From positions 8,979,230-9,043,229 of the forward strand of contig SMSO01000032.1 in assembly GCA_004764695.1 (NCBI GenBank): DNA of 64,000 nt. Reading direction: 5' to 3'. Positions 22,801-63,997 of this stretch are shown one piece after another. The translations under genes were made by a program, and so were the position numbers. The notes beneath the pieces were generated by a model. It saw nothing but the letters and a program-made list of their open reading frames with translations, had not been told where the DNA came from and made no database searches. Positions within the stretch are counted from its first letter, which is position 1; each line of letters opens with the position of its first letter. This DNA is from Schizochytrium sp. TIO01. Taxonomy: Eukaryota; Protista; Bigyra: Labyrinthulomycetes.

Positions 22801-23980
22801 TGCCACCGAATCACTTGAACACGGTAGAGGCCCAAAAGTGCCGGTCTTTCGCCCTGAACGAACCATAGAGAAAGTGCCGGCACGGGGTAAAGTGGCAGGT
22901 TGGGGCCGCTTTGGCTTGGGGAAATGCAAGGTTTCACTAGCTAGGTGAACAGTAGCCTGTGACTGCGAGTGAGGGCGTTAGAGTGGAGATGCAGAGCAGC
23001 ATGGTACTGGGCCCAAAGTATCACCGTTGAGCATTCATTGTATCGCGCCAGCCTGGTCGGGGGAGGGGCTAAAGTTCCTCTCGCTCATTTGTTTTCAGCT
23101 GGTAGAGGGGTACGCGCGAAACTGGCAGCTTAAAAATTGGGAAAGATACGCCATGAGGAAAACTTGTTTTTGAAGCAGGGCTGACAGCAAAAAAGAGCTT
23201 GCAAGTCTCGCTTTATCGGAGCGCTAGAATAACGTAAGTGCCATTGATAAGTTGGGTGGTTTATTGCAATCTACCCTCAACTGCCGACGTTCGAACAATG
23301 ATTCTAGTTACATTAAAAGGAGCAAAACACGATACATGGGCTTCATAGAAATAATCCAACATCCGCTTTGGTGCCGATCACAAGCACCCCTAATACTATT
23401 TTTTGTTCTCAAAAACATGAATGTGCCTGCAACTGAGCAAAATCTTAAAATCTTTAACACTAGGTATGACTTACACCAGCCCTTTTGTAACGGCAACAGG
23501 AAATGCCAAAGCCCAGATGATATAAATCCTCGCACTGGATTACGACTAGCTCTTTCATCACGCCAAGGACATTGCAATGTGTTTTACCCGAACCTTTGTT
23601 TCCGACGGATCTTCCAATACTGACTACTCAGTGTACCCTACGAAATACAGCAGTACCTTAAGACGGATGTACAGGACCTATGCAAGCCACATTCTTCAGT
23701 GCGCATGCACAGCACTTGCTCTTTGTGAGAGCAAGTACAAAAATTACGTTACCGAATCCTATTCTAATGCATGTTTTTAGTTTTGGGCTCCTTCAGAGTG
23801 CAGCCCAACATGTTTATATATTACATCAAACGAAAATTTAAAAGTATATGAACCTTTTTTTAGGTCTTTCTTTATGTTTTACTTGATTTTGTCGTAGAAG
23901 CAAGGTTGATCATGGTTTGGAAATCAAATGGTATCAGCAAACCCGAAAAGGTATCTGATCGATTTAGCCCCACGCGAACC

Positions 23981-26900: not shown

Positions 26901-28096
26901 CTGCAGCTCCTACATTTTGTACCAGTGCGACTATCGAGGCACGCTGTGATGACGATATGCGTTTTCGACAATACGAGCTTTCTGACGATGGCCTTTTTGT
27001 TGAGTTGCCGAGTAACCGTACAGGCGAGTGGGATAGCTCCGAATGGCCGATTGCCTACGTCAAGACAATTGACCTAACACCAAACACGCATCTTGAGTTT
27101 GAATGCCAAGAAGCTCGGGGCTCTGTTGGAGGTTTCATTGCTTTGATCGACGCATGTGGCACGCGATATGTTACGAACAACGCAACTGTGTTGGATTCCA
27201 ACCCAGATTCTCTGCAGTGGTACATTATCCCTTCACTCACAGATGAATCCACTAACGCTCTCGTCTACACCCAGAATGGTGATGGTGATTGGACCTCAAT
27301 GGATGATGTACTCACAGACTCTGATGCATACTGGGTATGGAACGGTGAGCTCAACAACACGATGACGTTCAGCTTCGACTTTGGTCGTGCACGTCAGTTT
27401 ACACCTGCGCCAACACCTTTGCCAACTCCAGAGCCTACCCCAGAGCCTACCCCAGAGCCTACTTTAGCACCAACACATGATCCTACGAGAGCTCCGACAG
27501 ACAAACCAACAGATTCTCCTACTCAAGAGCCAACTGCAGCTCCTACATTTTGTACCAGTGCGACTATCGAGGCACGCTGTGATGACGATATGCGTTTTCG
27601 ACAATACGAGCTTTCTGACGATGGCCTTTTTGTTGAGTTGCCGAGTAACCGTACAGGCGAGTGGGATAGCTCCGAATGGCCGATTGCCTACGTCAAGACA
27701 ATTGACCTAACACCAAACACGCATCTTGAGTTTGAATGCCAAGAAGCTCGGGGCTCTGTTGGAGGTTTCATTGCTTTGATCGACGCATGTGGCACGCGAT
27801 ATGTTACGAACAACGCAACTGTGTTGGATTCCAACCCAGATTCTCTGCAGTGGTACATTATCCCTTCACTCACAGATGAATCCACTAACGCTCTCGTCTA
27901 CACCCAGAATGGTGATGGTGATTGGACCTCAATGGATGATGTACTCACAGACTCTGATGCATACTGGGTATGGAACGGTGAGCTCAACAACACGATGACG
28001 TTTGGTTTCGACTTTGGTCGTGCACGTCAATTTACATCTGGGCCAACGACATCCCCTACTGTCATGCGCCGCGCGCTGCGGAGTGTACAGGTTTAA
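23981..28096 (+). CDS. Secreted protein with 7 tandem ~160-aa lectin-like beta-sandwich domains (ADEL/CBM67-like pattern) and Pro/Thr linkers
   Basis: Signal peptide MRTTQGWHVFAFVALVTICAVTA. Seven repeats of CxSATIxxRCDD...LEFECxDxGxxGGFxA...YxT...W...QxGxGxW...DxYWVWNG. PTPEPT linkers; no TM anchor. Repeat periods of 534 bp and 633 bp. Confidence 0.88.
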   Translation: MRTTQGWHVFAFVALVTICAVTADRNAEFSATEHVSMNDSKHKLEKWRKLDSYPSDLCSCSSATIKVRCDDNLQFRQYEMTNGVYTEIPSDRSGTWDYQDWTTTYTKTIELSGQTHLEFECQDSGDTGGFVAEIEACGYTYITDRSVVFDSNPDPYGWFINPEKSDSSSTAGLVYTQMGTGVWGTRGSGLTNTDAYWVWNGKTYNTITFGFNLECPNQECTSATIEARCDDNLRFRQYELSSDGLFVEQSSDRTGEWDSTSWITTYVKTIGITSNTHLEFECNDNGSVGGFVALINACGKRYVTSQATISNANPNTLEWYIIPSLTDESTNALVYTQNGEGEWSLADNVLTDSDTYWVWNGELFNTMTFGFDFGRARQFTPAPTFSPTPEPTPRPTRFPTRRPTPAPTVCTSATIEARCDDNLRFRQYELSSDGLFVEQPSNRTGEWDSTSWITTYVKTIDITPNTHLEFECKDNGSVGGFVALINACGKRYVTSSATASSSNPNSLEWYIIPSLTDESTNALVYTQNGEGEWSLADDVLTDSDTYWVWNGELFNTMTFGFDFGRTRQFTPAPTLSPTPEPTVAPTVCTSATIEARCDDDMRFRQYELSDDGLFVEQPSDRTGEWDDSDWTTTYVKTIDITPNTHLEFECQDRGSVGGFIALINVCGRRYVTSSATVSSSNPNSLEWYIIPSLTDESTNALVYTQNGEGEWSLADDVLTDSDTYWVWNGELFNTMTFGFDFGRTRQFTPAPTLSPTPEPTVAPTVCTSATIEARCDDDMRFRQYELSDDGLFVEQPSDRTGEWDDSDWTTTYVKTIDITPNTHLEFECQDRGSVGGFIALINVCGRRYVTSSATVSSSNPNSLEWYIIPSLTDESTNALVYTQNGDGEWSLADDVLTDSDTYWVWNGELFNTMTFGFDFGRTRQFTPAPTLSPTPEPTPEPTPEPTPEPTLAPTHDPTRAPTDKPTDSPTQEPTAAPTFCTSATIEARCDDDMRFRQYELSDDGLFVELPSNRTGEWDSSEWPIAYVKTIDLTPNTHLEFECQEARGSVGGFIALIDACGTRYVTNNATVLDSNPDSLQWYIIPSLTDESTNALVYTQNGDGDWTSMDDVLTDSDAYWVWNGELNNTMTFSFDFGRARQFTPAPTPLPTPEPTPEPTPEPTLAPTHDPTRAPTDKPTDSPTQEPTAAPTFCTSATIEARCDDDMRFRQYELSDDGLFVELPSNRTGEWDSSEWPIAYVKTIDLTPNTHLEFECQEARGSVGGFIALIDACGTRYVTNNATVLDSNPDSLQWYIIPSLTDESTNALVYTQNGDGDWTSMDDVLTDSDAYWVWNGELNNTMTFGFDFGRARQFTSGPTTSPTVMRRALRSVQV

Positions 28097-29679: not shown

Positions 29680-30105
29680 TGGTCGTGACTCCTAAACAAT
29701 TGAAAGATAGGCTAGCATTCAGAAGGTTGAACGAAGAGGATGCTAACTCTCTCAGAAAACTAAGCTTGTGAATGAGTTAGGTAAACTAAGCGGGGACTAA
29801 GGAGTCCTGCTAGGTGAAGACTCTGGTGGCTGTGAGTAGCCGGGTTTTGGGGGTACGCTTGTCCGTGAGACTTCTTCTTTGAGAGGTGTGGATGTGCCAG
29901 TTGCACGATAACGTGCACGATAAGAGGAAATCTTTTATGTCTAAAAGATTTTAGATTAACAGGTTTTTCTTTTAAATTTTCTTTTTAATGAAAATAAAGT
30001 TTTAACTTGAAAGGGGTGAAGTTTTCTCTGTCTTTTTTTTTTCTTGATAATGTAAGGGCGAATGCATTCATTTGGCAACTTGTATAGGAATAGCCTAGAG
30101 GGCTC
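29680..30105. repeat. Dispersed repeat copy A (partner at 47592-48085)
   Basis: Collinear shared blocks GATAGGCTAGC.TTCAGAA, GAACGAAGAGG, AGAAAACTAAGCT, CGTGCAC.ATAAGAGGA, TTTAACTTGAAAG, GGCGAATGCATTCATT, CAACTTGTAT, CTAGAGGGC. Confidence 0.8.
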
Positions 30106-32437: not shown

Positions 32438-33040
32438 TAATACGCAAAAAAAAAAATTAAATACACATCATTGGCTAGTGATTTGAAAAATAAAAATAAA
32501 AATAATTAGCAGGATTAATTCTTAAAATGTGTGCATTCTACATATAACTAATGGAAGGTAGTACGAGCATAAAATGATTCTATATAGGCCTCTACGTATG
32601 TAAATCCTACCATTACCAATTCTCTGGGACCCACTCCGTACTACCTACCTATGTCCCAATCCAGTGAGAGTGTCTACAGCTGAACCTTTGCTGCCGGGCC
32701 TACTAGGTATAGGTACTTTTTTTTTTTAATTGTAAAAAATTGAAAAACAAAAGACACCAAAGAAAGGCTCGAACTTTGAGTGAGGGATGGGGTATTACTA
32801 TCATTAGTTGCCGAGTTACTAGTGGATTAAATTTAAAAGTATATAGCCTACCCTAAGGAGCAATGCACCACCATCGAGGTGTTGTGCACCAAGTTACCTT
32901 GAAATCGTCAAATTTAGAAACTTTCGACGCAATGCAAAACACCAATTGCCCACGCCCACGCTGTACCTAGAGTTGGCAGGACCACTTAAGAAACAGTCGC
33001 ACAGAGTTGTCCACCATCATACTAACCTGTAGGTCGCAAG

Positions 33041-36000
33041 ATGGCGAAACAGCGAAAAGCCCTGTCCTCTGTTCTTGCCCTTGCAGCTCTCCTTTGCCTG
33101 ACCATACCCAAGTCCTTGGCAGCAAGCTGCACTGTGACCTCTACAACAACTGCGCCAGCATATCCTAGTGACTCTGGCTTCGACACGTCCAAACTTATTA
33201 GTATCGCAAAAGCTACAGAAGTTGTTCAGCTTCGAGTGACACCAAATTCCCCTCCGGATGGCTGGAACTCACGTACGAGCTGCCCTTTTGATGAAGACGC
33301 TGATGAACTCCTACCTTGGGAAGATGTATCAACATGGGGCTCAGCTGTCCCGGCAGACGGTGAAGACGTAACCTTACCCGAAAACTCACGGGTGCTCATC
33401 AGTGGCTGCTCAGTCTCTGCCGATACAGTTTATGGGCTCATCACAATTCCTGCAACTTCGGAACTTGTGTTCGCAGATGAAGACATTATGCTCAACACTA
33501 CTGGCATCAGTGTTGATGGCAAGCTTGTACTAGGCTCTGAAACATGCCGATTGCATAGTGATATCTCCATCACTTTGCATGGGTCCAGGCCGTCCTCATT
33601 TCCAGTCTCGCCGCACTATAAAGGCATCACTGCTCAGGGCAATGGTGTGCTTGATGTACACGGCTCTATCTTTCATCCCACCTGGTCCCGGCTTGCTACT
33701 ACAGCCTCCGCCAGTGACACACAAATCTACTTGCAACACAAGGTCAACTGGCAAGCTGGCCAACAAATCGTTGTAGTAGCGACTGAACTTAAGGATTCGA
33801 GAGACTGGCACCATAACGAGGTTCGTACGATCTCGAAGGTAGAGATTAGTGGGAAATTCTCCCGTATTACGGTTACCGAGGCATTGAATTACACCCACTA
33901 TGGAGGATCGGAGTACCAAGCCGAAGTTGGCCTGCTCTCGCACAATATCATCATCCAGGGTGATATTACTTCTGAGGGCACTGATTCAGATGATGATATT
34001 TGCTACAACAGCGAGTATGGTAGCTACCCTTGCATTGATAAGCATCTTACAGGTTACGGTGGGCACACGCTCGGTAATGGAACAAATGCGACCGTGCGAT
34101 TCGAAGGTGTAGAGCTGTATCGCATGGGTCAAACAAACGTGTTGGCCCGGTATCCATTCCACTTTCACCACATGGGTGAAGGTGGTGTAGACTCGTACCT
34201 GAAGCACTCAAGTATGCATCACACTTTCTACCGGTGTGCAACGATTCATGGGACAAATCACTCTTTGATTTCAGATAACGTTGCGTATGATGCGATTGGT
34301 CATTGTTTTTATAGTGGTGAGGACGGCGTAGAAGAGAACAACACTCTCGCGTACAATCTTGCTGCGCATGTTCATTTTCTTGGCTATCCTCAGAGAAGTG
34401 GCAACCAATACATGAATACGGTAATACAAAACTCTACGTTAACACAACCTGCAGATTTAACAGCTAGCCCCTTTTACATTACACGTGCATACAATCGCTA
34501 CTACGGCAATGCTGCTTCCGGAGGATATTCGGGCTTTGCTATAGTACGGATGCCCGCCCCTATCATGGATTACCGGGATTGGGACTTTCCAAAAGGAGGT
34601 TTACCTGAAAATCGACCATTCTTGGAGTTTGATGGAAATACGTGTCATTCTTCTGGATTTTGGTGGAATTCAGCAGCTTGTATTTATGTGGGTGGACTGC
34701 TAACACATGTTAATAGTTCGAGTTCTCTTTTGCAATATAATCCAGGCCGGACTACATCAAGCCGAAATACCGTGTGTGACCTTGGAGATGACGCTTACTC
34801 ATGCCCACTTGCGATGAATAATACGAAGGTATTTCTAAGCAACTGGGGTGTAACCAACTGGGGAAAACGAGGAACCTTTAATTCAATGGAGGTTCACGAT
34901 ACTACACGCCCAGTAGGTGTTCTTGGTGAGCACTTTTTGAACAATATCCTTTTTGTCTGCCGCTCTGGAAACTTCGAACCCGTTCAATCTGGAACAGACA
35001 AGTACTCCAAACGCTGGTTCTACTCGAGTTATGTTGGATATGAAACCTATGATGTAGATCAACGTCATATTATTGATGGCATAATCATGCGGAAATGTGG
35101 CAACCCGGAAAGGGACTCGCCAATTTGGCGCTTTGCGACGCATTCTGATCAATATGTACCAGGTTTTCAAGAGGTCATAAATGATGTTACATATGACCAG
35201 TGTAACAAAACAGTTCTCTTTAGTGAGACAGTCTCCGCTTACCTCTCTGTTAGCGGATACCTTGCAAATCTGTTAGATGCGGATGGATCTTTGAGTGGTG
35301 ATGGAAATGGCCCTCGCATTGTTGGTTCAGGTCGTGAAGGCATTGAATTCTGGGAGCTTGACGATAATTGCACATTGATAAATGACTATTACTCTTGCGA
35401 CGCCATTTCTCCAATTACAGGAAAGAAGAGAGGCATTGCTAGTTTCACAGTTCAATTCGATCCTACATTGGTAGAACAATTTTCAGAGGTCAGTATATGC
35501 AGTAATGGAGCGTACAAGTCCATTGACTGCCCTCGGGTAGGATCGGTAATGCGAATTGGCCAAGAAGGAGAGCCTAGTGAAGTTGGCCTTCCAATTGAAG
35601 GTAACGCAGTTATCTCGGGTGCCACTGGCGGATTTGGCTTTCTCCTTCTCTTTGATTCGGGTAGTCCTGTTGAGGCTGTGTTTCTCAAAGCTCAAATTGA
35701 TGAAGACGATCTTCTTATCATTGCCATGCCATACCCGGCAGGTTCAGTGTTTAATATGACCTATCGGTCTGCTTATTGGTGCTATCAATGGCATTCGCTC
35801 GACTACTGCGAGCATAATTTTTCGTCCGCTGCTTCACTCCAGGCAGTTATCAATGGCAACGGAGATCTCTACTACTTTGATACTAGTCGTGGGTTGTTAT
35901 TCTTCCGTTACGTACAACAGAGTCCTCATAGAGCTGATTATTCAGAGTCTCCAGCATATGGACAGCTTGGGCTGTCATATTATGAGCGAGCTGGATTTCG

Positions 36001-36382
36001 CATTCCTCCCGCTACAACTTTTGGAAATCTTACTCTAACAGTTGACTGCACTCTGAACGAGACAGATACAAACTATTGTCAGTTGTCCAAACACCATATC
36101 GATGGAATTTGCGAAGACTATGGATTTAGCTCTGATAGCTCAATCGTTGCCTATGATTCCTGTCAAAGCTCTAGATCTTCATCAAGTGTAGCCACTGAGA
36201 GCACAGGTTCTGCTCAAACTCTATATATTGCTATTCCAGTTGCAGTTGTTTGTGCTCTCACCATGTTAGCAGCCGTGGCCGTATTTATGATCATTCGTAG
36301 GAAGAGGCAACTTCATCGAAGTCAATCCGGAAGCGTTGTTATCAAACAAGGCAATGTTGTAGACAAGCCAGATTATTCATAA
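33041..36382 (+). CDS. G8-domain plus beta-helix type-I membrane protein (CEMIP/TMEM2/fibrocystin-like family), 1113 aa
   Basis: Signal peptide; G8 start W...TWGSAVPADGEDVTLP; TWSRLATTA; AEVGLLSHNIIIQG; GVELYRMGQ..LARYPFHFH; IHGT; GHCFY..EDGVEENN; C-terminal TM segment followed by RRKR. Confidence 0.93.
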   Translation: MAKQRKALSSVLALAALLCLTIPKSLAASCTVTSTTTAPAYPSDSGFDTSKLISIAKATEVVQLRVTPNSPPDGWNSRTSCPFDEDADELLPWEDVSTWGSAVPADGEDVTLPENSRVLISGCSVSADTVYGLITIPATSELVFADEDIMLNTTGISVDGKLVLGSETCRLHSDISITLHGSRPSSFPVSPHYKGITAQGNGVLDVHGSIFHPTWSRLATTASASDTQIYLQHKVNWQAGQQIVVVATELKDSRDWHHNEVRTISKVEISGKFSRITVTEALNYTHYGGSEYQAEVGLLSHNIIIQGDITSEGTDSDDDICYNSEYGSYPCIDKHLTGYGGHTLGNGTNATVRFEGVELYRMGQTNVLARYPFHFHHMGEGGVDSYLKHSSMHHTFYRCATIHGTNHSLISDNVAYDAIGHCFYSGEDGVEENNTLAYNLAAHVHFLGYPQRSGNQYMNTVIQNSTLTQPADLTASPFYITRAYNRYYGNAASGGYSGFAIVRMPAPIMDYRDWDFPKGGLPENRPFLEFDGNTCHSSGFWWNSAACIYVGGLLTHVNSSSSLLQYNPGRTTSSRNTVCDLGDDAYSCPLAMNNTKVFLSNWGVTNWGKRGTFNSMEVHDTTRPVGVLGEHFLNNILFVCRSGNFEPVQSGTDKYSKRWFYSSYVGYETYDVDQRHIIDGIIMRKCGNPERDSPIWRFATHSDQYVPGFQEVINDVTYDQCNKTVLFSETVSAYLSVSGYLANLLDADGSLSGDGNGPRIVGSGREGIEFWELDDNCTLINDYYSCDAISPITGKKRGIASFTVQFDPTLVEQFSEVSICSNGAYKSIDCPRVGSVMRIGQEGEPSEVGLPIEGNAVISGATGGFGFLLLFDSGSPVEAVFLKAQIDEDDLLIIAMPYPAGSVFNMTYRSAYWCYQWHSLDYCEHNFSSAASLQAVINGNGDLYYFDTSRGLLFFRYVQQSPHRADYSESPAYGQLGLSYYERAGFRIPPATTFGNLTLTVDCTLNETDTNYCQLSKHHIDGICEDYGFSSDSSIVAYDSCQSSRSSSSVATESTGSAQTLYIAIPVAVVCALTMLAAVAVFMIIRRKRQLHRSQSGSVVIKQGNVVDKPDYS

Positions 36383-38019
36383 TTGTTTAAGTTGTTTTAA
36401 TTTTGATATATTTCCAATTTAAAAATAATTTTAAAAAAGCACATAGAAATGACTTTGAACTAATGATGATTCTTTCAACTTGTTCGGCTTTTTAACATTA
36501 TTATCTGAAGTCTTGAAGTTGAACTCAATCCCCCCTCTTTAATTAATTAAAATAAGGAGATTATAGTCCCTTTCTCTAATATTCCATATAGGGTATATCC
36601 TCATTAATTCTACTAGGTAGTACATTCTTAAAGATTTAGATTTACAAAAAGTGAATCTTACAATTCGCATTCTAGACTTTTGCATACTAATAGATATTAG
36701 ATCTGAAAAAGTTCCATGAATACCTAGATACTATTACTATGAAGATTATATAATTTAGATATGGGGAGCGGACTTCGATCATAGTGTGTAGCTTCTAAGT
36801 GAAGGCACGAGTACTAAATCCCTACTGAAAGGTGATACTAATTAGCGTGAGGTTGACTGTAAAGATGAGGGCTAGAAGCTTGATGAAGGTTATAAGAAGG
36901 TTGATTTAAGTGTTAGCGAACTGCTGTCCTGAAGAATGAATTCCAGGACAGATGGATTCATGTAGTAATTAGGGAGATTAAGACATTCTTGAATGTGGTT
37001 AGAGATAATCGATGGGGTTAGGTTATCCAACCTTCTCCAACCATCGATTCAAGCTAAAACAAGCTTGGGTGTCGGTGATGTGTATTCACACTTCCTAGTT
37101 CTTGGCTTCAGCAGCTGGCTGCCTATTCTTGTTCTAATGTAAACCTTACCTCTATTGGGTTTTACAAAGGGACGCCAAGAACTCTAGCAATGTCTTGTCC
37201 ACTAGTTCCTTCGATTGGAGATCTCAGCAATCCCCCGATTTGGAATTTGATTAATATCTATCTACCGGCTACCTGTACTGGGTTGTTTAAATAATAATAT
37301 ATTTCCTCTCTTTTTCCCTTTTTCCCTTTCATTATTATTATTATTTAAATCTAAAGTGCGCTTCTCAAGCACTTCATTGGTAGAATCTTTGAGTAAAAAT
37401 AGCATCTGCGGATCAATTAACTTGCAATATATAGAGCCACAAAGTAAGTTCCGCAGCATTACGACACCCTCAAGTATGGCAGTGATATCTACCCTTCGGG
37501 TAGTCTATTGCCCTCTAAGGCACAGCCACGATGTGACTATCATGTCATCCAAAAGCAAATTAACAATATGCAGGAACTCCTCTAACAAATCGTGATCTCG
37601 AATTAAAACAAATCGTGATCTCGAATTAAATTAAACAGGGGTCTATGACCCTACGACTTTGCCGAAATGTTCCTTCTCCTCCACTTAGTGAGGTCAGTAC
37701 TGTCGCGAAAGTCAGGGTCGTCTCGCAAAACTAAGTTGATGTCTATTCGACTCCGGGACTCTTATCGACGGCTTGTTGTCACCTTTACGTCAGAATACAC
37801 ATCATTCTTTTCAATCTTCAATACTTTCAGCCCCACGCAAATCCGTTTGGAGTTCGTTCCTATACCTCAGGATGACGAGCATTGCGGCAACTTCGGGATA
37901 GTCCGTAACTTTAAATATTGCACATCACGGATGGCTATCCGTTCAAACAGGATCTTCTCCAGGACATTCGATTGAACAAAGGTATCACGGTTGCAGTGAA
38001 TCGAATATGTACAAACAAG

Positions 38020-38475
38020 AAACTCGTTTCCTCGTCACCCTCGACTCATCAGAGACCAAGGCTCAGCTCCAACTTTATACCATAGACCATTTGTTATGTA
38101 GTCAATATATTGCGTTCCCTAACAAAAACCTCTTGGACTTTCTTCGCGACCCTGAGCCTTTCCTGACTGTCCAGACCAAACCTTATAGCGGTCCCTAACA
38201 TCGAAGTTACGCATTGCCCAGTACTCACAGAAAAAAGAAAGCCCATCGAAATGCTTTGCCTGATATCCAACAGAATATTGACACCAAAGACTCCGCTTCG
38301 ATGTTCTTATATGCAATTACGTTCCCGGACGCCACTCTCCACACAATCTCCTATGCATTTGCTGCCCAGAATCTACGTAACCTCTCCAAGGACGAAAACC
38401 GTCCCTTTCTCCTCCAAAAGAGTCAATGCCATAATGTTGCCACCTGGATCTGAAGCTCTTTTGGCCCTTCAAGAT
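38020..38475 (+). pseudogene. Degenerate copy of a dispersed, formerly coding sequence (partner at ~730-1150)
   Basis: See the 730-1150 feature. Fragmented ORFs 38007-38198 and 38214-38453 align with fragments near 760-1100. Confidence 0.5.
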
Positions 38476-39384
38476 AAAATGCATAGGAAATAAGTATTCC
38501 GAGGGAATTTATCTCATGGTGATCGCGCGTTCGAAGTACCGAGTCTTAATAATACCCTATCCACTATCTAGAGGTACCTATCTCTCAATACCTATCTCTA
38601 CTTACTTCGCTAATCATGAAATCTTCTTTTAGTTATTAGGCACCCATACGCGTTACTTAACTTTATCTTAATTTTTAAACCCACGTCAGACCCGCCCACC
38701 CTACTATTCCTATCTAATGAAAAACGTTCATAAAGTTGAAAAATAAAAGCTTGCAATCATTTCCTTGCTTTCTTTCGGACTATATCCTCTTTATATATCG
38801 CTATTCCAGTCACATTGTTTATTCAACATGGTAGGTACTCTTACTCTTGGTCTGTTAGTGAGAAAGTTACTCAAAGAAACTCTAATGAATGCTAAAAGCA
38901 ATAGAACTATTCGAACAACACTCTCAACTGAAACTCAAAGTACTATGTGAAGTGTATATGCTAACGAACTGAGTGAACACGCACATTTTTTTTTTGGGGG
39001 GGGGGCAAGGTGAAACTAATAATGAGTTGAGAAAAGGTTTCGATCTGTGCCAAGCCTAATTTAAAAGTAAGCCTCAACGGATATATTTGAGGCGCTTTGA
39101 TTTTTAGAGTAAAAGAGCCTTTTAGTTTTCAATAGTACCTATATCTACTTCGTCCCTAAACGAGAACTGTACTTGTCTAGAACGTGAGTACGCAAATACG
39201 GAAAAAACCTTGTAGACCTTACCATTGACCTGCAGCTTCGAGTGCAGCAGGTCTTAAACGCTCTGTGAAGACTGACCGTGTTCATCGATTTAGCTGAAGA
39301 CTGCAGCGTAAGCTCGTCAAGCAGTGATTCATTGCTCGAGTGGCTTTCAGGTGCTGACCGCATCACAGTACTACAGACTTCAAG

Positions 39385-42300
39385 ATGTCAGATCATCCAA
39401 GGGTCGTGTATGCGCTTAACGAGCTTCAGAAAGGCGCTACAGAATTAAAGTAAGTTCATGTATTACCTTCTCTGTTTGCGTAACACAATGAAATCCTGAA
39501 AGCCAACCTAGATCACTCACGTCCATGCATGTGTGCATACATCTAATGCAATATAATGTATTGCTTGCCATCATTCAATCAACTCGACAGTCTTTCAAGG
39601 AGTAATATCGGCTCAGAGGGCGCCAAGGCAGTGGCTACGGCGCTGAAAGAGAACCGTTCGCTGACATCACTTGAGTAAGTTGTCTAAGCAGTAGCTCGTG
39701 GACTTGTTCGTACATGGTGCTTGCTTCGTTGTTTGGTGGGTGGTTTTGGTCGGTGTTGTTTTGCAAGTTTATGCAATCCGTTGTTTGTTTGTTTCTTTGA
39801 TGGATGGATGGATAAGTTGTCTGTTTTAGTGAGTATACATCCATCGAACAAAGAGCAAAATGACAACGCAACAAAGATAAATCCTGAAAGCCAACCTAGT
39901 TCACTCACGGCCATGCATGCATGCGTGCGTGCATCTATTGTAATATGTAACGTGTAATGTATTGCTTGCCATCATTCAATCAAATCAACAGTCTTCAAGA
40001 CAACCGCATCGGTTTTGAGGGCGCCAAGGCAGTGGCTGCGGCGCTGAAAGAAAACCGGTCGCTCACATCACTTGAGTAAGTTGTCTACGCAACACCGCAA
40101 CTCGTGGACTTGTTTGTACATGATGCTTGGTTTGTTGTTTGGTGGGTGGGTCGGTGTTGTTTTTCAAGTTTATGCAATCGCTTGTTTGCTTGATGGACGG
40201 ATGGGTTGTCTGTTTGAGTGAATATACATCCATCGAACAAGGAGCAAAATGACAACACAACAAAGATAAATGCTGAAAGTCAACCTAGATCACTCACGTC
40301 CATGCATGTATGTGTGCATCTATTGTAATATGTAACGTGTAATGTATTGCTTGCCATCATTCAATCAAATCGACAGTCTTGGAAGCAATCGCATCGGCGA
40401 CGAGGGCGCCAAGGCAGTGGCTGCGGTGCTGAAAGAGAACCGGTTGCTGACATCACTTGAGTAAGTTGTCTACGCAACAACGCAACTCGTGGACTTGTTT
40501 GTACATGATGCTTGGTTTGTTGTTTGGTGGGTGGGTCGGTGTTGTTTTTCAAGTTTATGCAATCGCTTGTTTGCTTGATGGATGGATGAGTTGTCTGTTT
40601 GAGTGAGTATACATCCATCGCACAAAGAGCAAAATGACAACACAACAAAGATAAATCCTGAAAGTCAACCTAGATTACTCACGTCCATGCATGCATGCGT
40701 GCATCTATTGTAATATGTAACGTGTAATGTATTGCTTGCCATCATTCAATCAAATCGACAGTCTTGGAGGCAACAAAATCAGCGACGAGGGCGCCAAGGC
40801 AGTGGCTGCGGTGCTGAAAGAGAACCGGTCGCTGACATCACTCAAGTAAGTTGTCTACGCAACACCATAGCTCGTGGACTTGTTTGTACATGATGCTTGG
40901 TTTGTTGTTTGGTGGGTGGGTCGGTGTTGTTTTGCAAGTTTATGCAATCGCTTGTTTGTTGATGGATGGATGAGTTATCTGTTTGAGTGAGTATACATCC
41001 ATCGAACAAAGAGCAAAATGACAACACAACAAAGATAAATGCTGAAAGCCAACCTAGATCACTCACGTCCATGCATGTATCCAATGTAATGCATTGCAAT
41101 GTAATGTATTGCTTGCCATCATTCAATCAAATCGACAGTCTTAGAAGCAACGATATCGGCTCAGAGGGCGCCAAGGCAGTGGCTGCGGTGCTGAAAGAGA
41201 ACCGGTCGCTGACATCACTCAAGTAAGTTATCTACGCAACACCATAGCTCGTGGACTTGTTTGTACATGATGCTTGGTTTGTTGTTTGGTGGGTGGGTCG
41301 GTGTTGTTTTGCAAGTTTATGCAATCGCTTGTTTGTTGATGGATGGATGAGTTATCTGTTTGAGTGAGTATACATCCATCGAACAAAGAGCAAAATGACA
41401 ACACAACAAAGATGAAATCCTGAAAGCCAACCTAGATCACTCACGTCTATGCATGCATGCGTGCATCTACTGTAATATGTAACGTGTAATGTATTGCTTG
41501 CCATCATTCAATCAAATCGACAGTCTTTTCGACAACTATATCGACTCAGAGGGCGCCAAGGCAGTGGGTGCGGCGCTGAAAGAGAACCGGTCGCTGACAT
41601 CACTTGAGTAAGTTGTCCACGCAACACCGCAGCTCGTGGACTTGTTTGTACATGATGCTTGGTTTGTTGTTTGGTGGGTGGGTCGGTGTTGTTTTGCAAG
41701 TTTATGCATTCGCTTGTTTGTTTGATGGATGGATGATTTATCTGTTTGAGGGAGTATACATTTATCAAACAAAGAGCAAAATGACAACACAACAAAGCTA
41801 AATCCTGAAAGCCAACCTAGATCACTCACGTCCATGCATGCATGCGTGCGTGCATTTATTGTAATATGTAACGTGTAATGTATTGCTTGCCATCATTCAA
41901 TCAAATCGACAGTCTTTCCTACAACTATATCGGCTTTGAGGGCGCCAGGGCAGTGGCTGCGGCTCTGAAAGAGAACCGGTCGCTGACATCACTCAAGTAA
42001 GTTGTCCACGCAACACCGCAGCTCGTGGACTTGTTTGTACATGATGCTTGGTTTGTTGTTTGGTGGGTGGGTCGGTGTTGTTTTGCAAGTTTATTTATGC
42101 AATCGCTTGTTTGTTTGATGGATGGATAAGTTGTCTGTTTGAGTGAGTACACATCCATCGAACAAAGAGCAAAATGACAACACAACAACGATAAATCCTG
42201 AAAGTCAACCTAGATTACTCACGTCCATGCATGCATGCGTGCATCTATTGTAATATGTAACGTGTAATGTATTGCTTGCCATCATTCAATCAAATCGACA

Positions 42301-45300
42301 GTCTTGTTCGCAACCATATCGGCTCAGAGGGCGCCATGGCAGTGGGTGCGGCGCTGAAAGAGAACCGGTCGCTGACATCACTTGAGTAAGTTGCCTACGC
42401 AACACCGCAGCTCGTGGACTTGTTTGTACATGATGCTTGGTTTGTTGTTTGGTGGGTGGGTCGGTGTTGTTTTGCAAGTTTATTTATGCAATCGCCTGTT
42501 TGTTTGATGGATGGATGGATGGATGGATGGATGGATGGATGGATGGATGGATGGATGGATGGATGGATGGATGGATGGATGGATGGATGGCTAAGTTGTC
42601 TTTTTGAGTGAGTATACATCCATCGAACAAAGAGCAAAATGACAACACAACAAAGATAAATGCTGAAAGGCAACCTAGATCACTCACGACCATGCATGCA
42701 TGCGTGCATCTATTGTAATATGTAACGTGTAATATATTGCTTGCCATCATTCAATCAAATCGACAGTCTTGGAAGCAATCGCATCGGCGACGAGGGCGCC
42801 AAGGCAGTGGCTGCGGCGCTGAAAGAGAACCGGTCGCTGACATCACTCAAGTAAGTTGTCTACGCAACACCGCAGCTGGTGGACTTGTTTGTACATGATG
42901 CTTGGTTTGTTGTTTGGTTGGTGGGTCGGTGCTGGTTTGCAAGTTTATGCAATCTCTTGTTTGTTTGATGGATGGATGGATGGATGGATGGATGAATGGA
43001 TGGCTAAGTTGTCTGTTTGAGTGAGTATACATCCATCGAAGAAAGAGCAAAATGACAACACAACAAAGATAAATGCTGAAAGTCAACCTAGATTACTCAC
43101 GTCCATGCATGCATGCGTGCATCTATTGTAATATGTAACGTGTAATGTATTGCTTGCCATCATTCAATCAAATCGACAGTCTTTTGTACAACGATATCGG
43201 CGACGAGGGCGCCAAGGCAGTGGCTGCGGTGCTGAAAGAGAACCGGTCGCTGACATCACTTGTGTAAGTTGTCTACGCAACACCGCAGCTCGTGGACTTG
43301 TTTGTACATAATGGTTAATTTGTTGTTTGGTGGGTTGGTCGGTGTTGTTTTGCAAGTTTATGCAATCGCTTGCTTGTTTGATGGATGGATGAGTTGTCTG
43401 TTTCAGTGAGTATACATCCATCGAACAAAGAGCAAAATGACAACACAACAAAGATAAATCCTGAAAGCCAACCTAGATCACTCACGTCCATGCATGCGTG
43501 CGTGCTTCTATTGTAATATGTAACGTGTAATGTATTGCTTGCCATCATTCAATCAAATCGACAGTCTTCAAGACAACGATATCGGCTCAGAGGGCGCTAA
43601 GGCAGTGGCTGCGGCGCTGAAAGAGAACCGGTCGCTGACATCACTCAAGTAAGTTGTCTACGCAACACCGCAGCTGGTGGACTTGTTTGTACATGATGCT
43701 TGGTTTGTTGTTTGGTGGGTGGGTCGGTGTTGTTTTGCAAGTTTATGCAATCGCTTGTTTGTTTGATGGATGGATGGGTTGTCTGTTTGAGTGAGTACAC
43801 ATCCGTCGAACAAAGAGCAAAATGACAACACAACAAAGATAAATGCTGAAAGCCAACCTAGATCACTCACGTCCATGCATGCATGCGTGCATCTATTGTA
43901 ATGTGTAACGTGTAATGTATTGCTTGCCATCATTCAATCAAATCCACAGTCTTTTCGACAACGATATCGGCGACGAGGGCGCCACGGCGGTGGCTGCGGC
44001 GCTGAAAGTGAACCGGTCGCTGACATCACTCAAGTAAGTTGTCTACGCAACACCGCAGCTCGTGGACTTGTTTGTACATGATGCTTGGTTTGTTGTTTGG
44101 TGGGTGGGTCGATGTTGTTTTGCAAGTTTATGCAATCGCTTGTTTGTTTGATAGATGGATGGGTTGTCTGTTTGGGTGAGTATACATCCATCGAACAAAG
44201 AGCAAAATGACAACACAACAAAGATAAATGCTGAAAGCCAACCTAGATCACTCACGTCCATGCATGTATCCAATGTAATGCATTGCAATGTAATGTATTG
44301 CTTGCCATCATTCAATCAAATCGACAGTCTTAGAAGCAACGATATCGGCTCAGAGGGCGCCAAGGCAGTGGCTGCGGCGCTGAAAGAGAACCGGTCGCTG
44401 ACATCACTCAAGTAAGTTGTCTACGCAACACCGCAGCTCGTGGACTTGTTTGTACATGATGCTTGGTTTGTTGTTTGGTGGGTGGGTCGGTGTTGTTTTG
44501 CAAGTTTATGCAATCGCTTGTTTGTTTGATGGATGGATGAGTTGTCTGTTTGAGTGAGTATACATCCATCGAACAATGAGCAAAATGACAACACAACAAA
44601 GATAAATGCTGAAAGTCAACCTAAATCACTCACGTCCATGCATGTATCCAATGTAATGCATTGCAATGTAATGTATTGCTTGCCATCATTCAATCAAATC
44701 GACAGTCTTAGAAGCAACTATATTGGCTCAGAGGGCGCCAAAGCAGTGGCTGCGGCGCTGAAAGAGAACCGGTCGCTGACATCACTATCGTAAGTTGTCT
44801 ACGCAACACCGCAGCTGGTGGACTTGTTTGTACACGAGGCTTGGTTAGTTGGTTGGTTCGTTGCTTCGTGGGTTGTCTAGTGTGTTATTTTGCCGATGTT
44901 TTTCTTCGCGCCATTGCAAGTTTGTTGTGGAATTGTTTGTTTGGTTGATTGTGGATTTAAAAAAGTGCACGATAGTATCAGCGACTAAATGAAACTGTAC
45001 TGGCAATACTGTGGGTGCCTTTTGATGACGTGAAATTGTTAACTGACGAACGGAGTTGATGTCATTTGGTTTTTACTGATCCTTAGAATGTCCGATGGGT
45101 TGACGGATGAAATGTACAAGGAGCGCCAGTTTAATAAAGAAATTTATTCTGCAAAGGCAAGAAGGAAAATGCTTGAACAGATATCTCGTGAGCTTCGTTG
45201 TATACATGTTATAAACAATGTATTTAGTCTGCCGTTTTCAGTGAAGCGTAGTCTTCTTACACAAGCTTGGCCTGCTAACAGCTCTGGTGAGCTGAGTTCG

Positions 45301-45423
45301 AAAGAGGACTATCTTGCTGCCCAGAAAGTAGAGCTTGATTTGCTGGAAGCTGCAAACGTTGCCTTTCGTGGAGCATTGGGATGTCTAGGCCCTTATATTT
45401 TGAATAAAAATAGTTCTAAATAG
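39385..45423 (+). CDS. 16-exon ribonuclease-inhibitor/NLRC3-type LRR protein (525 aa): short N-cap, 14 x 28-aa LRRs each on its own 84-nt exon, and a ~112-aa C-terminal domain
   Basis: Exon 1 is 39385-39449 ([22 protein letters not shown]; CAAGATG start, GTAAGT donor). The 84-nt LRR exons start at 39591, 39992, 40377, 40762, 41139, 41524, 41913, 42302, 42767, 43180, 43565, 43950, 44328 and 44706, all with CAG acceptors, GTAAGT donors and phase 2. The last exon is 45087-45423 (TACTGAT branch site, TTAG acceptor). Total 1578 nt, in frame with no stops. Consensus [27 protein letters not shown][D/N]. Confidence 0.92.
39491..44835 (+). repeat. Tandem array of 14 exon+intron cassettes (period 377-465 bp, mode 385)
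   Basis: Start-to-start periods are 401, 385, 385, 377, 385, 389, 389, 465, 413, 385, 385, 378, 378. Introns are near-identical, and length differences come mostly from a GATG microsatellite. Confidence 0.97.
42506..42590. repeat. (GATG)~21 microsatellite expansion inside an LRR-array intron
   Basis: Directly visible; other introns carry about 2-9 copies at the same site. Confidence 0.95.
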
Positions 45424-58075: not shown

Positions 58076-61000
58076 CTCACAAGGGACAATATTTCATTAA
58101 CCACTAAAGATACTAATCATCAGGTGGTACCGTTGGAAAGCTGTTAAGATTTACAATAGGCGAGATGTGTTTTCTCAGGCGAAATATGTTTAAAATTTAT
58201 TTTTATTGACTTTGAATGTTATTTCTTGGTCTCTCATATTATTAATAGGGGGAGGGAACAAGTTTAGTAGTGTTGTAACTCTATGCATATAATAGACAGA
58301 ACTTTGCTACAAACACCGTCGGATAGCTGAATAATAGTTAAAGTGGGTGCATTTGATTTATGAGAGAAAATCTTCTTGCAAGCCTGAGAAAAGAAGCTCT
58401 AAGTTGGCACTCTATTTGTGAGCAGCAAAATGATTAGTATAAGGTTCAATTTCTCAACAACGGGGAAAGATATTACTCATCAGGTGGTGCCGTTGGAAAG
58501 CAGCTTTAATTGGCAACAGGGTACATGTGTTTTCTCAGGCGAAATCTTTTTAAAATTTATTTTTACTGACCTTTGAAAGTTATTTCTTAGTCGCCCATAT
58601 CATTAATAGGGAGAAAGAACTGAGTTTAGTAGTGCTCTAACTCTATGAATAGAATAGAAAGAACTTTGCTATAGGCACCTCTTAGTAGAACACGAATTGC
58701 TGAGATGCCCGAATTTGATTTATGAGAGAAAAGCTTCTTGCAAGCTTGAGAAAAGAAGCTCTAAGTTACTACTCTGTTTATTGGCAGGACAGAGAATTAA
58801 TGGTTAGTATAAGATTCATTTTCTTAACAACGGGATAATATATTAATTATTGAAGTGTACCATTGGAAAGCTGGTTGAATTTGCAACAGATTGAATGTGT
58901 TTTCTCAGAAAAAATACTTTAAACATGCATTTTACGGACCTTTAAAAGTTATTTTTTTTTGTCTCTCATGTTATTAATAGGGGGAAGGAACTGGGTTAGT
59001 AGTGTTGTATCTCTATAAATACAATCGACAGAGCTTTTCTACAAACATCATTCGATAGTTTATGAAGTGTTAAGATGAGTGGATTTAATTTATGAGAAAA
59101 AATGTTCTTGCAAGCTTGAGAAAAGAAGCTCTAAGTTGTCACTCTATTTGATAACAAAAGAAATAAATAAATGATTAGTATAAGATGCATTCTCTCAACA
59201 ATGGGGAAAGATATTAATCATGGAGTGATACTGTTGGAAAGCTGTTAAGAACTACAACAGGTTAGATGTGTTTTCTCAGAAAAAATACTTTAAACATATA
59301 GTTTTACTGACCTTTGAAAGTTTATTTTTGGTCTCTCATATTATTAATAGGGGGAAGGAACCGAATTTAGTAGTGTTCTAACTCTATGAGTAGAATAAAT
59401 AGAACTTTTCTACAAACACAATTCGATAGCTCAAGAATTGTTGAGATGGCCGCGTTTGATTTATGAGAGAAAAGCTTCTTGCAAGCTTGAGAAAAGAAGC
59501 TCTAAGTTGTCACTCTATTTGATAACAAAAGAAAGAATAAAATGATTAGTATAAGATTCATTTTCTCAACAACGGGGAAATATATAAATCATGGACTGGT
59601 ACCATTGGAAAGCGGCTTGAAATTGCAACAGGTTAGATGTGTTTTCTCAGAAAAAATACTTTAAACATATAGTTTTACTGACCTTTGAAAGTTTATTTTT
59701 GGTCTCTCATATTATTAATAGGGGGAAGGAACCGAATTTAGTAGTGTTCTAACTCTATGAGTAGAATAAATAGAACTTTTCTACAAACACAATTCGATAG
59801 CTCAAGAATTGTTGAGATGGCCGCGTTTGATTTATGAGAGAAAAGCTTCTTGCAAGCTTGAGAAAAGAAGCTCTAAGTTGTCACTCTATTTGATAACAAA
59901 AGAAAGAATAAAATGATTAGTATAAGATTCATTTTCTCAACAACGGGGAAATATATAAATCATGGACTGGTACCATTGGAAAGCGGCTTGAAATTGCAAC
60001 AGGTTAGATGTGTTTTCTCAGAAAAAATACTTTAAACATATAGTTTTACTGACCTTTGAAAGTTTATTTTTGGTCTCTCATATTATTAATAGGGGGAAGG
60101 AACCGAATTTAGTAGTGTTCTAACTCTATGAGTAGAATAAATAGAACTTTTCTACAAACACAATTCGATAGCTCAAGAATTGTTGAGATGGCCGCGTTTG
60201 ATTTATGAGAGAAAAGCTTCTTGCAAGCTTGAGAAAAGAAGCTCTAAGTTGTCACTCTATTTGATAACAAAAGAAAGAATAAAATGATTAGTATAAGATG
60301 CATTTTCTCAATAATGAAGCAATTTATTAATCATGGAGTGATACCATTGGAAAGCTGCTTGAAATTACAACAGGGTAGATGTGATTTCTCAGAAAAAATA
60401 CTTTAAACATATAGTTTTACTGACCTTTGAAAGTTTGTTTTTTGTCTCTCATATTATTAATAGGGGGAAGGAACCGAGTTTAGTAGTGTTTTAACTCTAT
60501 GAGTAGAGTAAGCAGAACTTTTCTAGAAGAATCATTCGATAGCGCATGAATTGTTGAGATGGTAGCATTTGATTTATGAGAGAAAACCTTTTATCAAGTT
60601 TGAGAAAAAAAGCTCTAAGTTGTTACTCTATTTGATAACAAAAGAAATAAATAAATGATTAGTATAAGATGCATTTTCTCAATAATGAAGCAATACATTA
60701 ATCATGGAGTGGTACCGCTGGAAAGCTATTTAAATTTACAACAGGGTAAATGTGTTTGCTCAGGTGAAATATTCTTAAACATATAGTTTTACTGACCTTT
60801 GAAAGTTTATTTTTGGTCTCTTATATTATTAATAGGGGAAGGAACTGAGTTTAGTGACAAGCGATAGCGAAGGTTGGTGACAACAAAGATCGGTTTAAAC
60901 TTTAAGGCTTGTTGCTCTGCAACTTAGTTTCGGGTCTGCTGCCTTCGAAGACTTTCTGCTTCGATTTTGCAGCATATAACTCGGACTCCTAGTGTTTACG

Positions 61001-63430
61001 CAATGTATTCACTAGTGCCTCGGACTTCTATTGTTTACCCAATGTAAACATTAGCAGCCATTTTCTTTTCCCTCTCTCTGAGAGAAACTGGTCGGCTTTT
61101 GGAAGAAGACTCCTAGCCAGAGTCTTAGTCCAAGTACAAGCCGTCCCGCGTTGATCAACAAGTCGAACGCCATCTGTCGTTCTTCCCGTGGCCAGCGAAT
61201 CAACCGTCCGTCGTTCACCTCAGGTCCCCCCTCTACTTAAGAGGGGACCTGAACTTTCTGAGGCACACGGCTCACCAGCACCTCTTGCGTCAGACGTTTG
61301 CGCAGTGCCTCACTAGCCAGTCCAACAGTCGACCAGGTACTCAACTTACCTGCCGACTCTCTGACTGGCTCTCGTGGCACGGAACCGGGTAACGGGACAG
61401 CAGCCCCGCAGGGACGTTCCTCTCTGTGCTCCGACATTTAGTAGTGTTCTAACTCTATGAGAAAAGTAAATAGAACTTTTATAGAAGAATCAATCGATAG
61501 CAAATTCATTGCTGAGATGCCCGCATTTGATTTATGATTGAAAATATTTTTGCAAGCTTGCGAAACGAAGCTCCAAGTTGTTACTCTATTTATTGGCAGG
61601 ATAAAGGGTAAATTGAATAGTATAAGATTCAATATCTCAACAATGAGATAATATATTAATCATCGAGTGGTATCATTGGAAAGATGCTTAAATTTACAAC
61701 AGGATAGGTGTGTTTTCTCCGAAACAATACTTTAAACATATAGTTTTACTGACCTTTGAAAGTTTATTTTTGATTTCTCATATTATTAATAGGGGAAAGG
61801 AACTGGGTTTGGTAGTGTTCTAACTTTATCAATAGAATCGACAGAGCTTTACTACAAGCACCATTCGATAGCTCATAAATTGTTAAGATGCGTGTATTTG
61901 ATTTACGAGAAAAACTCTTCTTGCAAGCTAGAGAAAAAAAGCTTCAAGTTGTCACTCTATTTGTGAGCAGGATAAAGAATTAAATGACCAGTATAAACTA
62001 CATTTTCTTATCAACGGGGAAAGATATTAATCATGGAATGGTACCGTTGGAAAGCTGTTTTAATTTACATTAGGGAAAATGCCTTGATTTAGAAAATGAA
62101 ATAACGATTATGTTTTTACTAACCTTTAAAAGATATTTTTTGGTCTCTTATACTATTAATATAAAAACAGAACTGAGTTTAGAAGTGTTGTAACTCTATG
62201 AAAAGAATGAACAAAACTTTTCTCCAAGCATCACCAGGTAGTGCAATGAGTGTTGATACGTCCGCATTTGAGTTATGAGAAAACTTCTTCTTGCAAGCTT
62301 CAGAATAAAGCTCCAAGTTGTTACTCTATTTGTTAATAGAACAAGGAATAAAATGATTAGTATAAGACTCATTTTCTCAACAACAAGGATAGATATTAAT
62401 CATGGAGTGGTACCGTTGGAAAGCTGTTTCAATTTACATTAGGGTAAATGTCTTGATTTAGAAAAATAAAATTATGGTTATGTTTTTACTGACCTTTGAA
62501 ATTTATTTTTTGGTCTTTCATATTAATAATAGGGGGAAGTAACCGAGTTTAGTAGTGTTCTAACTTTATCAATGTAATAGCCAGAGCATTACTACAAGCA
62601 CAATTCGATAATTCATGAACTGTTAAGGTGCCTGCATTTGATTTAGGATAAAAAATATTCTTGCAAGATTGAGAAAAAAACATCAAACTTTCACTCTATT
62701 TGTTAGCAGGATATATAACAACATGTTTAGTACAAGATCAATTTTCTCAACAACAGGGTCATATATTAATCATCGAATGGTACCCTTGGAAAGAAGCGCC
62801 AATTTGCAACAGGTAAGATGCGTTTGCTAAGAGAAATAAAAATTTTATTTATGTTTTTACTGACTTTCAAAAGTTATTTCTTAGTTTTTCATATTAATAT
62901 TAAGGAGAAGGAACCGAGTTTAGTAGTGTTTTAACGCAATCAAAAACGTAGGTAGAAGTTTTCCACAAGAACCACTCGGTCGCTCGTTCATGGCTAAGAT
63001 GGACACATTTGATTGATGAGAGGAAATCTTCTTGCAAGCTACAGGGAACAGGTCTTAGTTATCACTCTAATTGATAGCAGGCTATAGAATTAAATGGTTA
63101 GCATAAGATTCATTTCCTCAACAAATGAGTCACCTATTAATCATCGAATAGTACTATCGGAAAGCTGCTGAAATGTACGACAGGAAACCTATCTTGATTA
63201 AGAAAACTTAGAATTCTATTCAAGTTTTTATTGACTTTGAAAGTTATTTCTTAGTTTCTCATACTAAGAACGAGAAAAGGAAAACTTTGAAGTGTCATAA
63301 CTCTATCAATGAAATAGGTAGAACTTTTCTACAAGCACCACTAGAACGCTTCACAATTCATCGACGATCAACATTGAATTGTGGTGAAAAAATAGTTCTA
63401 CAAATTAGACAAAGGACTTCCATCATATTA
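58076..63430. repeat. Subtelomeric tandem repeat family 3, ~371 bp x ~13
   Basis: Marker GGAAAG (in GGTACCATTGGAAAG-like context) at ~58135, 58495, 58865, 59236, 59607, 59978, 60349, 60720, 61678, 62049, 62418, 62788, 63159. Central units are nearly identical and flanking units are diverged. Confidence 0.96.
60855..61436. mobile_element. 582-bp GC-richer TG...CA insertion with 5-bp TSD (solo-LTR-like)
   Basis: Interrupts a 371-bp unit at GAG-TTTAG-TAGTG. TTTAG is duplicated at 60850-60854 and 61437-61441. Starts TGACAAG and ends CCGACA. Unit spacing increases by ~587 bp (582+5). Confidence 0.85.
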
Positions 63431-63569: not shown

Positions 63570-63997
63570 TAGGTAAGGTTAGGTAAGGTTAGGTAAGGTT
63601 AGGTTAGGTAAGGTTAGGTAAGGTTAGGTAAGGTTAGGTAAGGTTAGGTAAGGTTAGGTAAGGTTAGGTAAGGTTAGGTTAGGTTAGGTTAGGTTAGGTT
63701 AGGTTAGGTTAGGTTAGGTTAGGTTAGGTTAGGTTAGGTTAGGTTAGGTTAGGTTAGGTTAGGTTAGGTTAGGTTAGGTTAGGTTAGGTTAGGTTAGGTT
63801 AGGTTAGGTTAGGTTAGGTTAGGTTAGGTTAGGTTAGGTTAGGTTAGGTTAGGTTAGGTTAGGTTAGGTTAGGTTAGGTTAGGTTAGGTTAGGTTAGGTT
63901 AGGTTAGGTTAGGTTAGGTTAGGTTAGGTTGGGTTAGGTTTAGGGTTAGGTTAGGTTGGTTAGGTTAGGTTAGGTTAGGTTAGGTTAGTTAGGTTAG
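63570..63997 (+). repeat. Telomere: proximal variant (TAAGG-TTAGG)n then pure (TTAGG)n
   Basis: Mostly alternating TAAGG/TTAGG to ~63673, then TTAGG to the window end; the G-rich strand runs 5'->3' outward. Confidence 0.98.

Follow-up and report, generated by a model that had tools for sequence, protein, structure and literature searches.

Passages of a preprint on Aurantiochytrium limacinum describe chromosome ends with TTAGG telomeres and a 5.55-kb ribosomal DNA (rDNA) unit located ~9.4 kb from the telomere (bioRxiv 10.1101/2023.06.15.545109). According to the same passages the LORE-TEARS repeats downstream of the rDNA have units of ~406 bp in Group 1 and ~366 bp in Group 2, and Group 0, with ~9 units of ~385 bp each, lies upstream of the 18S gene, between 18S and the 5S gene, which is present at 30 of the 37 ends; Group 0 is described as spacer repeats without similarity in GenBank and with a possible role in chromosome-end maintenance (bioRxiv 10.1101/2023.06.15.545109). 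Here we analyze a stretch of 64,000 nt from Schizochytrium sp. TIO01 (GenBank assembly GCA_004764695.1, contig SMSO01000032.1, positions 8,979,230 to 9,043,229, forward strand), referred to as the window, in which an array of the same period belongs to a gene of leucine-rich repeats (LRR) at 39385-45423. We consider it probable that this is an intact gene with one exon per LRR, and that its mosaic units are remodelled by ordinary homologous recombination with copies likely residing at other chromosome ends, together with selection on five codons.

Genes of comparable build have been reported from two other lineages. In Tetrahymena, as far as the sections of the source used here extend, tandem LRR exons of an exact length of 90 nt are separated by phase-2 introns, and near-identical exons occur in different genes (PMC6564038). 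These genes are dispersed, number in the thousands and were linked to the REP retrotransposon; the youngest are pericentromeric and subtelomeric, and unequal crossing over and ectopic recombination were proposed for them (PMC6564038). For Ectocarpus and other brown algae, excerpts from two papers report one LRR per phase-2 exon, shuffling of exons, sites under selection on the concave face and a proposed function as immune receptors; the exons are 72 nt long and of the plant type, the genes carry a ROC-COR or NB-ARC domain, inverted or dead exons occur in introns, and LRR-only loci exist (PMC3341825, PMC11378527). The gene in the window resembles that of Tetrahymena in its tandem, exact-length, phase-2 LRR exons, but the exons measure 84 nt instead of 90 nt, and block shuffling within the exon and a fixed place beside the rDNA stand against the whole-exon shuffling described there. 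With Ectocarpus it shares the stramenopile host and the single LRR per phase-2 exon, but it possesses ribonuclease-inhibitor-type repeats of 28 amino acids (aa), no nucleotide-binding domain and introns that are 94% identical. Judged by these parts of the literature, the locus is an exact-length phase-2 exon array (14 of 14 exons are 84 nt long) which works alike and is not a member of either family, as exon length and LRR class differ.

The setting of the gene resembles chromosome ends in A. limacinum. The window is closed by a TTAGG telomere repeat of ~430 nt (63570..63997, plus strand), and a single 18S-5.8S-28S rDNA unit of 5.5 kb (49157..54684, plus strand), the transcription of which is directed toward the telomere, lies 8.9 kb away from it. 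Tandem repeats of 412 bp and 370/371 bp follow downstream of this unit (55674..63340), and the 412-bp and 371-bp repeats approximate LORE-TEARS Groups 1 and 2, as characterized in the preprint passages, in size and place. The array with a period of 385 nt (39491-44857) is located 4.3 kb upstream of the 18S gene in this rDNA-bearing subtelomere. It therefore shares with Group 0 of these passages the period of 385, the position upstream of a telomere-proximal 18S gene, the single rDNA unit of ~5.5 kb and the TTAGG telomere; it differs in having 14 units instead of ~9, and in that the unit here consists of an intron and an LRR exon. By period, position and neighbours the LRR array and Group 0 are likely identical. 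The terms "LRR" and "leucine" do not occur in the main text of the preprint (bioRxiv 10.1101/2023.06.15.545109) or in PMC12606086, and literature searches, in which the name LORE-TEARS appeared in this preprint alone and three papers mentioned both Aurantiochytrium and a leucine-rich repeat, once each, gave no LRR description of this repeat; the journal version or the supplement may already note the exons (Fig. 2 plots mapped exons).

The gene comprises 16 exons and 525 codons in one reading frame, without a stop or frameshift in the 14 repeat exons, and all of its splice sites are GT-AG and of phase 2. The first exon (39385..39449, plus strand) begins with ATG, contains 21 codons plus 2 nt up to a phase-2 donor and lies in single-copy DNA; no obvious signal peptide was seen in it by eye. 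Intron 1 (39450..39590, plus strand, 141 nt) belongs to the repeat unit with its last ~109 nt only, and it is here that multi-copy DNA starts. The 14 LRR exons (39591..44789, plus strand, period 385) are each exactly 84 nt long and start at 39591, 39992, 40377, 40762, 41139, 41524, 41913, 42302, 42767, 43180, 43565, 43950, 44328 and 44706; the 13 introns between them are GT-AG, phase 2 and 293-381 nt in length. The last exon (45087..45423, plus strand) is multi-copy and encodes a tail of 111 aa with three predicted helices. That the array begins and ends inside introns, as an earlier note on this DNA had it, is correct for intron 1, where nt 33-141 correspond to unit nt 183-301 and thus to the 3' part alone; at the other end the last intron retains the 5' 68-72 nt of the unit and not ~45 nt. 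Introns 9 and 10 are the only ones with an expanded GATG microsatellite (42506-42590 and 42967-43003). No inverted exon copy was found in the window.

Each 84-nt exon encodes one LRR of 28 aa, leading to 14 repeats in total. Pfam LRR_6 was recognized on two single exons, with E-values of 0.0064 and 0.14 that fall short of the curated cutoff, and in the relative P0008, which carries the same tail, at E 1e-23. A model of P0008 (predicted local distance difference test, pLDDT, 77) consists of beta-alpha LRRs and matches tropomodulin, NOD2, NLRP and ribonuclease inhibitor. With beta-alpha units of 28-29 residues and an LxLxxNxI core, the repeats of the gene are of the ribonuclease-inhibitor type. 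They have the 28-residue beta-alpha repeat in common with tropomodulin, NOD2 and NLRP, but here the repeat framework is near-identical, no NACHT or other known domain is present and the helical tail is the gene's own. Since no nucleotide-binding domain was found (neither NB-ARC, NACHT nor ROC-COR) and no Pfam family was recognized in the 22 aa that precede the repeats or the 111 aa that follow them, the product is not an NLR or ROCO protein. The tail is modelled weakly (pLDDT 69, predicted template modelling score 0.34) and has no Pfam, PDB, Foldseek or Atlas match, the best E-value among PDB sequences being 0.87; structure comparison by VIA-align retrieved generic long helices only (best Z 6.0). 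Searches for homologues of the tail gave three hits among the representatives, P0002 alone in the profile search and none among the "longer" proteins. Locus L001, the one locus obtained with the tail profile, was rejected as an unrelated charged open reading frame (ORF) without LRRs. A likeness of the tail to an F-box or SOCS-box, noticed by eye, was dismissed because there is no Pfam hit and the spacing misfits the motifs of these boxes. The exact exon pattern had 0 hits in metagenome and viral contigs.

The earlier note proposed that variable blocks of these exons recur in new combinations through recombination or gene conversion, and the pairings it named are all in the sequence. QD occurs together with R/F in exon 2 and with D/S in exon 11, FD with Y/S in exon 6 and with D/D in exon 12, and RS with D in exons 5 and 13 and with Y in exon 14; the GSNRIGD heads of exons 3 and 9 are identical. 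A short intron variant (41074..41101, plus strand; also 44263-44290 and 44641-44668) is present ahead of exons 5, 13 and 14 exclusively (chance 1/286), each copy starting 65 nt upstream of its RS exon. Incompatibility tests and clonal simulations support recombination or conversion, including an uncoupling within the variable 25 nt. Among the 13 full units 308 of 703 pairs of informative sites are incompatible, and incompatibility grows with distance (near neighbours 0.108 compared to 0.489 in shuffled orders, p 5e-5). This distance signal persists if sites are merged into 21 markers (p 0.001-0.005), ranges from p 0.006 to 0.14 with 16 markers and is not significant with 11 coarse markers (p ~0.3). 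The Hudson-Kaplan minimum, which assumes no recurrent mutation, is 8 events. When clonal evolution was simulated on the fitted tree for the whole unit, with the poorly alignable variant block removed, 0 of 300 simulations reached the observed incompatibility (0.58 vs 0.34). That the units are mosaics generated by homologous recombination is well supported.

With regard to the scale of exchange, the longest exact shared tracts measure 202, 183, 118 and 117 nt, all shorter than one unit. The 202-nt tract (40987..41188, plus strand, equal to 44176-44377) comprises the 3' intron and the head of unit 5 and recurs in unit 13, and the 183-nt tract (40854..41036, plus strand, equal to 41231-41413) covers the 5' and middle parts of intron 5 and recurs in intron 6; the latter is a run of 54 markers, with 0 of 300 permutations as extreme. 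Unit 5 is thus chimeric: it agrees with unit 6 in the 5' and middle parts of its intron, and with unit 13 in the 3' part and the exon head. The nearest neighbour of most units switches between segments, and the upstream 3' intron shows no overall correlation with the exon head (Mantel r 0.07, p 0.31; 1 of 21 Mantel tests at p < 0.05 in one set, 0 of 10 in another). Exchange therefore acts below the size of a cassette as well. The proposal that cassettes move as units of upstream intron plus exon retains part of its force: units 5, 13 and 14 agree at 97% along their entire length, which fits whole-unit copying, whereas the exact tracts are sub-unit and intron and head are uncorrelated.

The finest scale is that of the exon head, as exemplified by 41143..41163 (plus strand; exon nt 5-25, containing codons 2, 3, 5 and 8). 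In this 21-nt head 42 of 47 pairs between blocks are incompatible compared to 6 of 19 within blocks (permutation p 0.0007), and none of 500 clonal simulations reaches this contrast. At the codon level only ~2 extra events are needed, and one of these may be a single-base change, codon 5 varying between D, Y, H and N by single-base differences; exchange within the exon is for this reason supported, though not by many independent events. The same figures could be read to the effect that no recombination takes place in the exon and that recurrent point mutation with convergent selection at hot codons imitates mosaicism. Such a reading gains from the one-base spacing of the codon 5 alternatives, from the small number of extra steps (1 for codons 2-3 vs 5, 1 for 5 vs 8, 0 for 2-3 vs 8) and from the fact that the clonal simulations are without selection. 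It has to contend with codon 8, where three codons only (7, 5 and 2 copies), 2-3 bases apart, recur unchanged, with the excess of incompatibility between over within blocks in the simulations just mentioned and with long shared intron patches, and we regard it as improbable.

Diversity is concentrated in the head, the mean pairwise difference being 0.37 there, while exon nt 26-81 differ by 0.043 and the introns by 0.057. The proportions of nonsynonymous (pN) and synonymous (pS) differences are 0.544 and 0.461 for codons 2, 3, 5, 8 and 28, and 0.04 and 0.115 for the framework, which is conserved. The approximately tenfold difference of the five codons relative to the intron level fits old alternatives being retained while the flanks homogenise; pN/pS by itself is no proof of positive selection. 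In the model of P0008 the positions that match the variable codons are located on and just past the beta strand. The end of the beta strand and the next loop form the ligand face in ribonuclease-inhibitor-type LRRs. Passages on Ectocarpus accord with such a placement of variable positions (PMC3341825, PMC11378527).

The 371-bp repeats of the same chromosome end are mosaic as well (p 0.001-0.003), and no candidate exon is common to their units. Their most variable 21-nt window exceeds the median by a factor of 2, compared to 6.5 in the LRR units. Mosaicism is hence a property of this subtelomere, and the focusing of diversity in five codons is special to the LRR gene. In the var, VSG and lamprey VLR systems subtelomeric or cassette pools are remodelled into mosaics by ectopic recombination or conversion, and the products are surface proteins that are under allelic exclusion or assembled in a programmed way. 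A comparable programmed or somatic diversification, with heads rewritten from a donor pool during growth as in lamprey VLR or trypanosome VSG, could be invoked here because blocks merely 3-6 nt apart are uncoupled, the site is subtelomeric and the pool of variants is large. Yet the LRR protein is without obvious signal or anchor, the gene is complete and has no empty cassette, many different heads are found in RNA-like contigs where VLR and VSG have an incomplete gene or a single expression site, and the mosaicism of the non-coding 371-bp repeats means that no LRR-specific machinery is needed. We consider programmed diversification hardly more probable than the recurrent mutation discussed above.

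The earlier note further assumed a small allele pool, which finds no support in view of many heads in other public runs that are absent from this array, and of a summed array depth hundreds of times that of the single-copy flank. In run X1 a contig of 1144 nt matches 38374-39517 with 0 differences at one-haplotype depth (382), and promoter and first exon are therefore locus-specific; runs X2 and X6 contain diverged alleles of the first-exon region (43 letters, 22-24 gaps). Relative to one haplotype the depth is 0.95-1.23x in the bin upstream of exon 1 and 43-170x in the bins of the last exon. For the array it amounts to 4,000-15,000 raw unit-equivalents, or 500-1,900 after division by 8 for contig overlap; these sums are not copy numbers, and overlap between short contigs inflates them, but gene numbers in the tens and unit numbers in the hundreds would be in keeping with an array at each chromosome end. 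Contigs on the stretch at an identity of at least 95% make up 7,538 of 9,286 in run X1, and there are thousands per DNA run. RNA-like contigs carry heads other than those of this array in the same exon frame. Six transcript-derived paralogous tails (P0001, P0004 and P0009-P0012) are 70-79% identical, and the older relatives P0002 and P0008 have diverged LRRs and share the tail at 36-38%. The variety of heads and copies lies partly between strains. The six close tails themselves look mosaic (107 of 435 pairs incompatible), which was left out of account as a possible effect of transcript assembly.

A narrower reading would limit recombination to this array and its allele, the related copies elsewhere being separate genes that exchange no blocks with it. 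Units 6 and 13 do suffice as sources of the chimeric unit 5, the first exon belongs to this locus specifically, and no second locus was seen whole. On the other hand the array offers no close partner for the heads of exons 1, 4, 7 and 8 (those of exons 4, 7 and 8 lie 4-6 differences from their nearest match), and both the abundance of near-identical contigs in every DNA run and the other heads in the same frame fit homogenisation across loci. We take exchange within the array alone to be unlikely, if the strongest of the alternatives, and exchange between chromosome ends to be likely. An assembly or polishing artefact, in which reads of many paralogues were merged into chimeric units, also has to be considered: the region is multi-copy, no spanning read was seen and the best DNA run contains 0.64 of the sampled words. 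However, 14 of 14 exons are in frame, no exact repeat exceeds 202 nt, contigs of X1 agree with the flank as far as 39517 without a single difference and independent contigs vary at the same head positions, so that an artefact appears the least probable explanation.

Transcription of the family is indicated by spliced joints. Of the 15 joints listed for four RNA-like runs of other samples (with 133 further beyond the listing), 14 connect an exon end to an exon start, compared to 0 of the 15 listed (with 132 further) in four DNA runs; a joint from an exon end to 45087, the start of the last exon, is present in three RNA-like runs, and in the transcript-derived P0004 the tail of this intron, a single LRR and the last exon stand in one frame. 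The LRR family is therefore transcribed and spliced, and this very copy is presumably expressed. Consensus rows for loose ends that combine several contigs, possibly chimeric, were excluded from the counts. Exon skipping, as might be read from joints between non-neighbouring exons, was not adopted because paralogues share blocks.

Taking these observations together, unequal crossover and conversion tracts shorter than a unit would reshape the units, with many near-identical copies, likely at other chromosome ends, as partners. The equal exon length and phase 2 would keep any exchange in frame, the 94%-identical introns could supply the homology for it, and tract ends or patchy mismatch repair might uncouple heads at intervals of a few bases. 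Selection likely retains old alternative codons at five predicted surface positions. The product is predicted to be a cytosolic horseshoe of 14 repeats with the variable residues at the end of the beta strand and in the following loop, and the family would amount to a binder repertoire (sensor, decoy or adaptor) for fast-changing foreign proteins, e.g. of resident viruses; this receptor role is a prediction.

Several points weigh against this explanation. A globally significant tract is found in only 1 of 78 unit pairs, one that involves unit 5, and for the introns alone, a weak test, 12 of 300 clonal simulations reach the observed incompatibility. The five variable codons were chosen after inspection of the data, and the values of pN and pS for them are only 0.544 and 0.461. 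The runs are contigs from other strains or species whose RNA status is a guess, none of those listed being recorded as RNA and X15 being flagged as probably DNA. No second locus was seen as contiguous DNA, and the placing of the other copies at chromosome ends draws on the preprint passages. Finally, no 5S gene was found, either in the window at the gathering score or in 28000-49100 at E 1, while Group 0, in those same passages, lies between 18S and 5S.

As judged from the parts of the Tetrahymena and brown algal papers considered, exact-length phase-2 LRR exon arrays and ectopic recombination near chromosome ends are already known. We report as new the 84-nt exons of the ribonuclease-inhibitor type, the homogenised introns, the codon-block shuffling within the exon, the private tail and the likely identity with a published spacer. 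If the match to Group 0 holds, a published non-coding spacer of chromosome ends is a multigene family of hypervariable LRR proteins, and this in a genetically tractable, industrially used protist with persistent mirusviruses. A more far-reaching idea, which we put forward tentatively and with more doubt than confidence, is that nearly every chromosome end carries a variable LRR gene spanning the border of chromosome-specific DNA (promoter and first exon) and a shared rDNA-telomere block. Exchanges of ends would then rewrite the binders and patchy conversion would reshuffle their codon blocks, providing a unicellular eukaryote with a permanent and quickly renewed repertoire of cytosolic receptors against its resident mirusviruses, concealed within DNA published as a spacer. 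That receptor repertoires are diversified by recombination in unicellular eukaryotes and algae has been an open idea since the work on Ectocarpus. Here a single telomere-to-telomere assembly could reveal the entire pool, and clonal cultures would allow it to be tracked.

Further features were observed in the window. Inside the telomere-proximal 371-bp repeats, unlike in the LRR array, 59255-60300 contains an exact duplication of 674 nt, which may be a recent expansion or an assembly collapse, and a GC-richer insert of ~580 nt (60860-61440), the ORF of which has no Pfam match, breaks up these repeats. At 36726-37467 the summed contig depth is very high in 4 of 4 DNA runs, and numerous dissimilar loose ends occur near 37157 and 37229; this dispersed repeat of high copy number lies 2 kb upstream of the LRR gene, and two scanned ORFs overlapping it have no Pfam family. 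No transposon family was recognized in 10 short intergenic ORFs among the 15 ORFs scanned. The segments 29700-30100 and 47650-48085, which are 68% alike over 443 nt and flank a G8-domain gene and the LRR gene, could be a worn repeat or the ends of an element. An intronless ORF of 1118 aa at 33026-36382 contains G8 and CEMIP domains and is present in two haplotypes ~6% apart in runs X1, X2 and X6, which suggests diploid or hybrid strains. The ORF of 1410 aa at 23864-28096, with ~7 near-identical cysteine-bearing domains and PT-rich linkers between them, is likely a surface protein with internal duplications. On the minus strand, 13937-14818 contains an ORF of 293 aa built of charged, alanine-rich repeats of 87 nt, which looks LEA-like.

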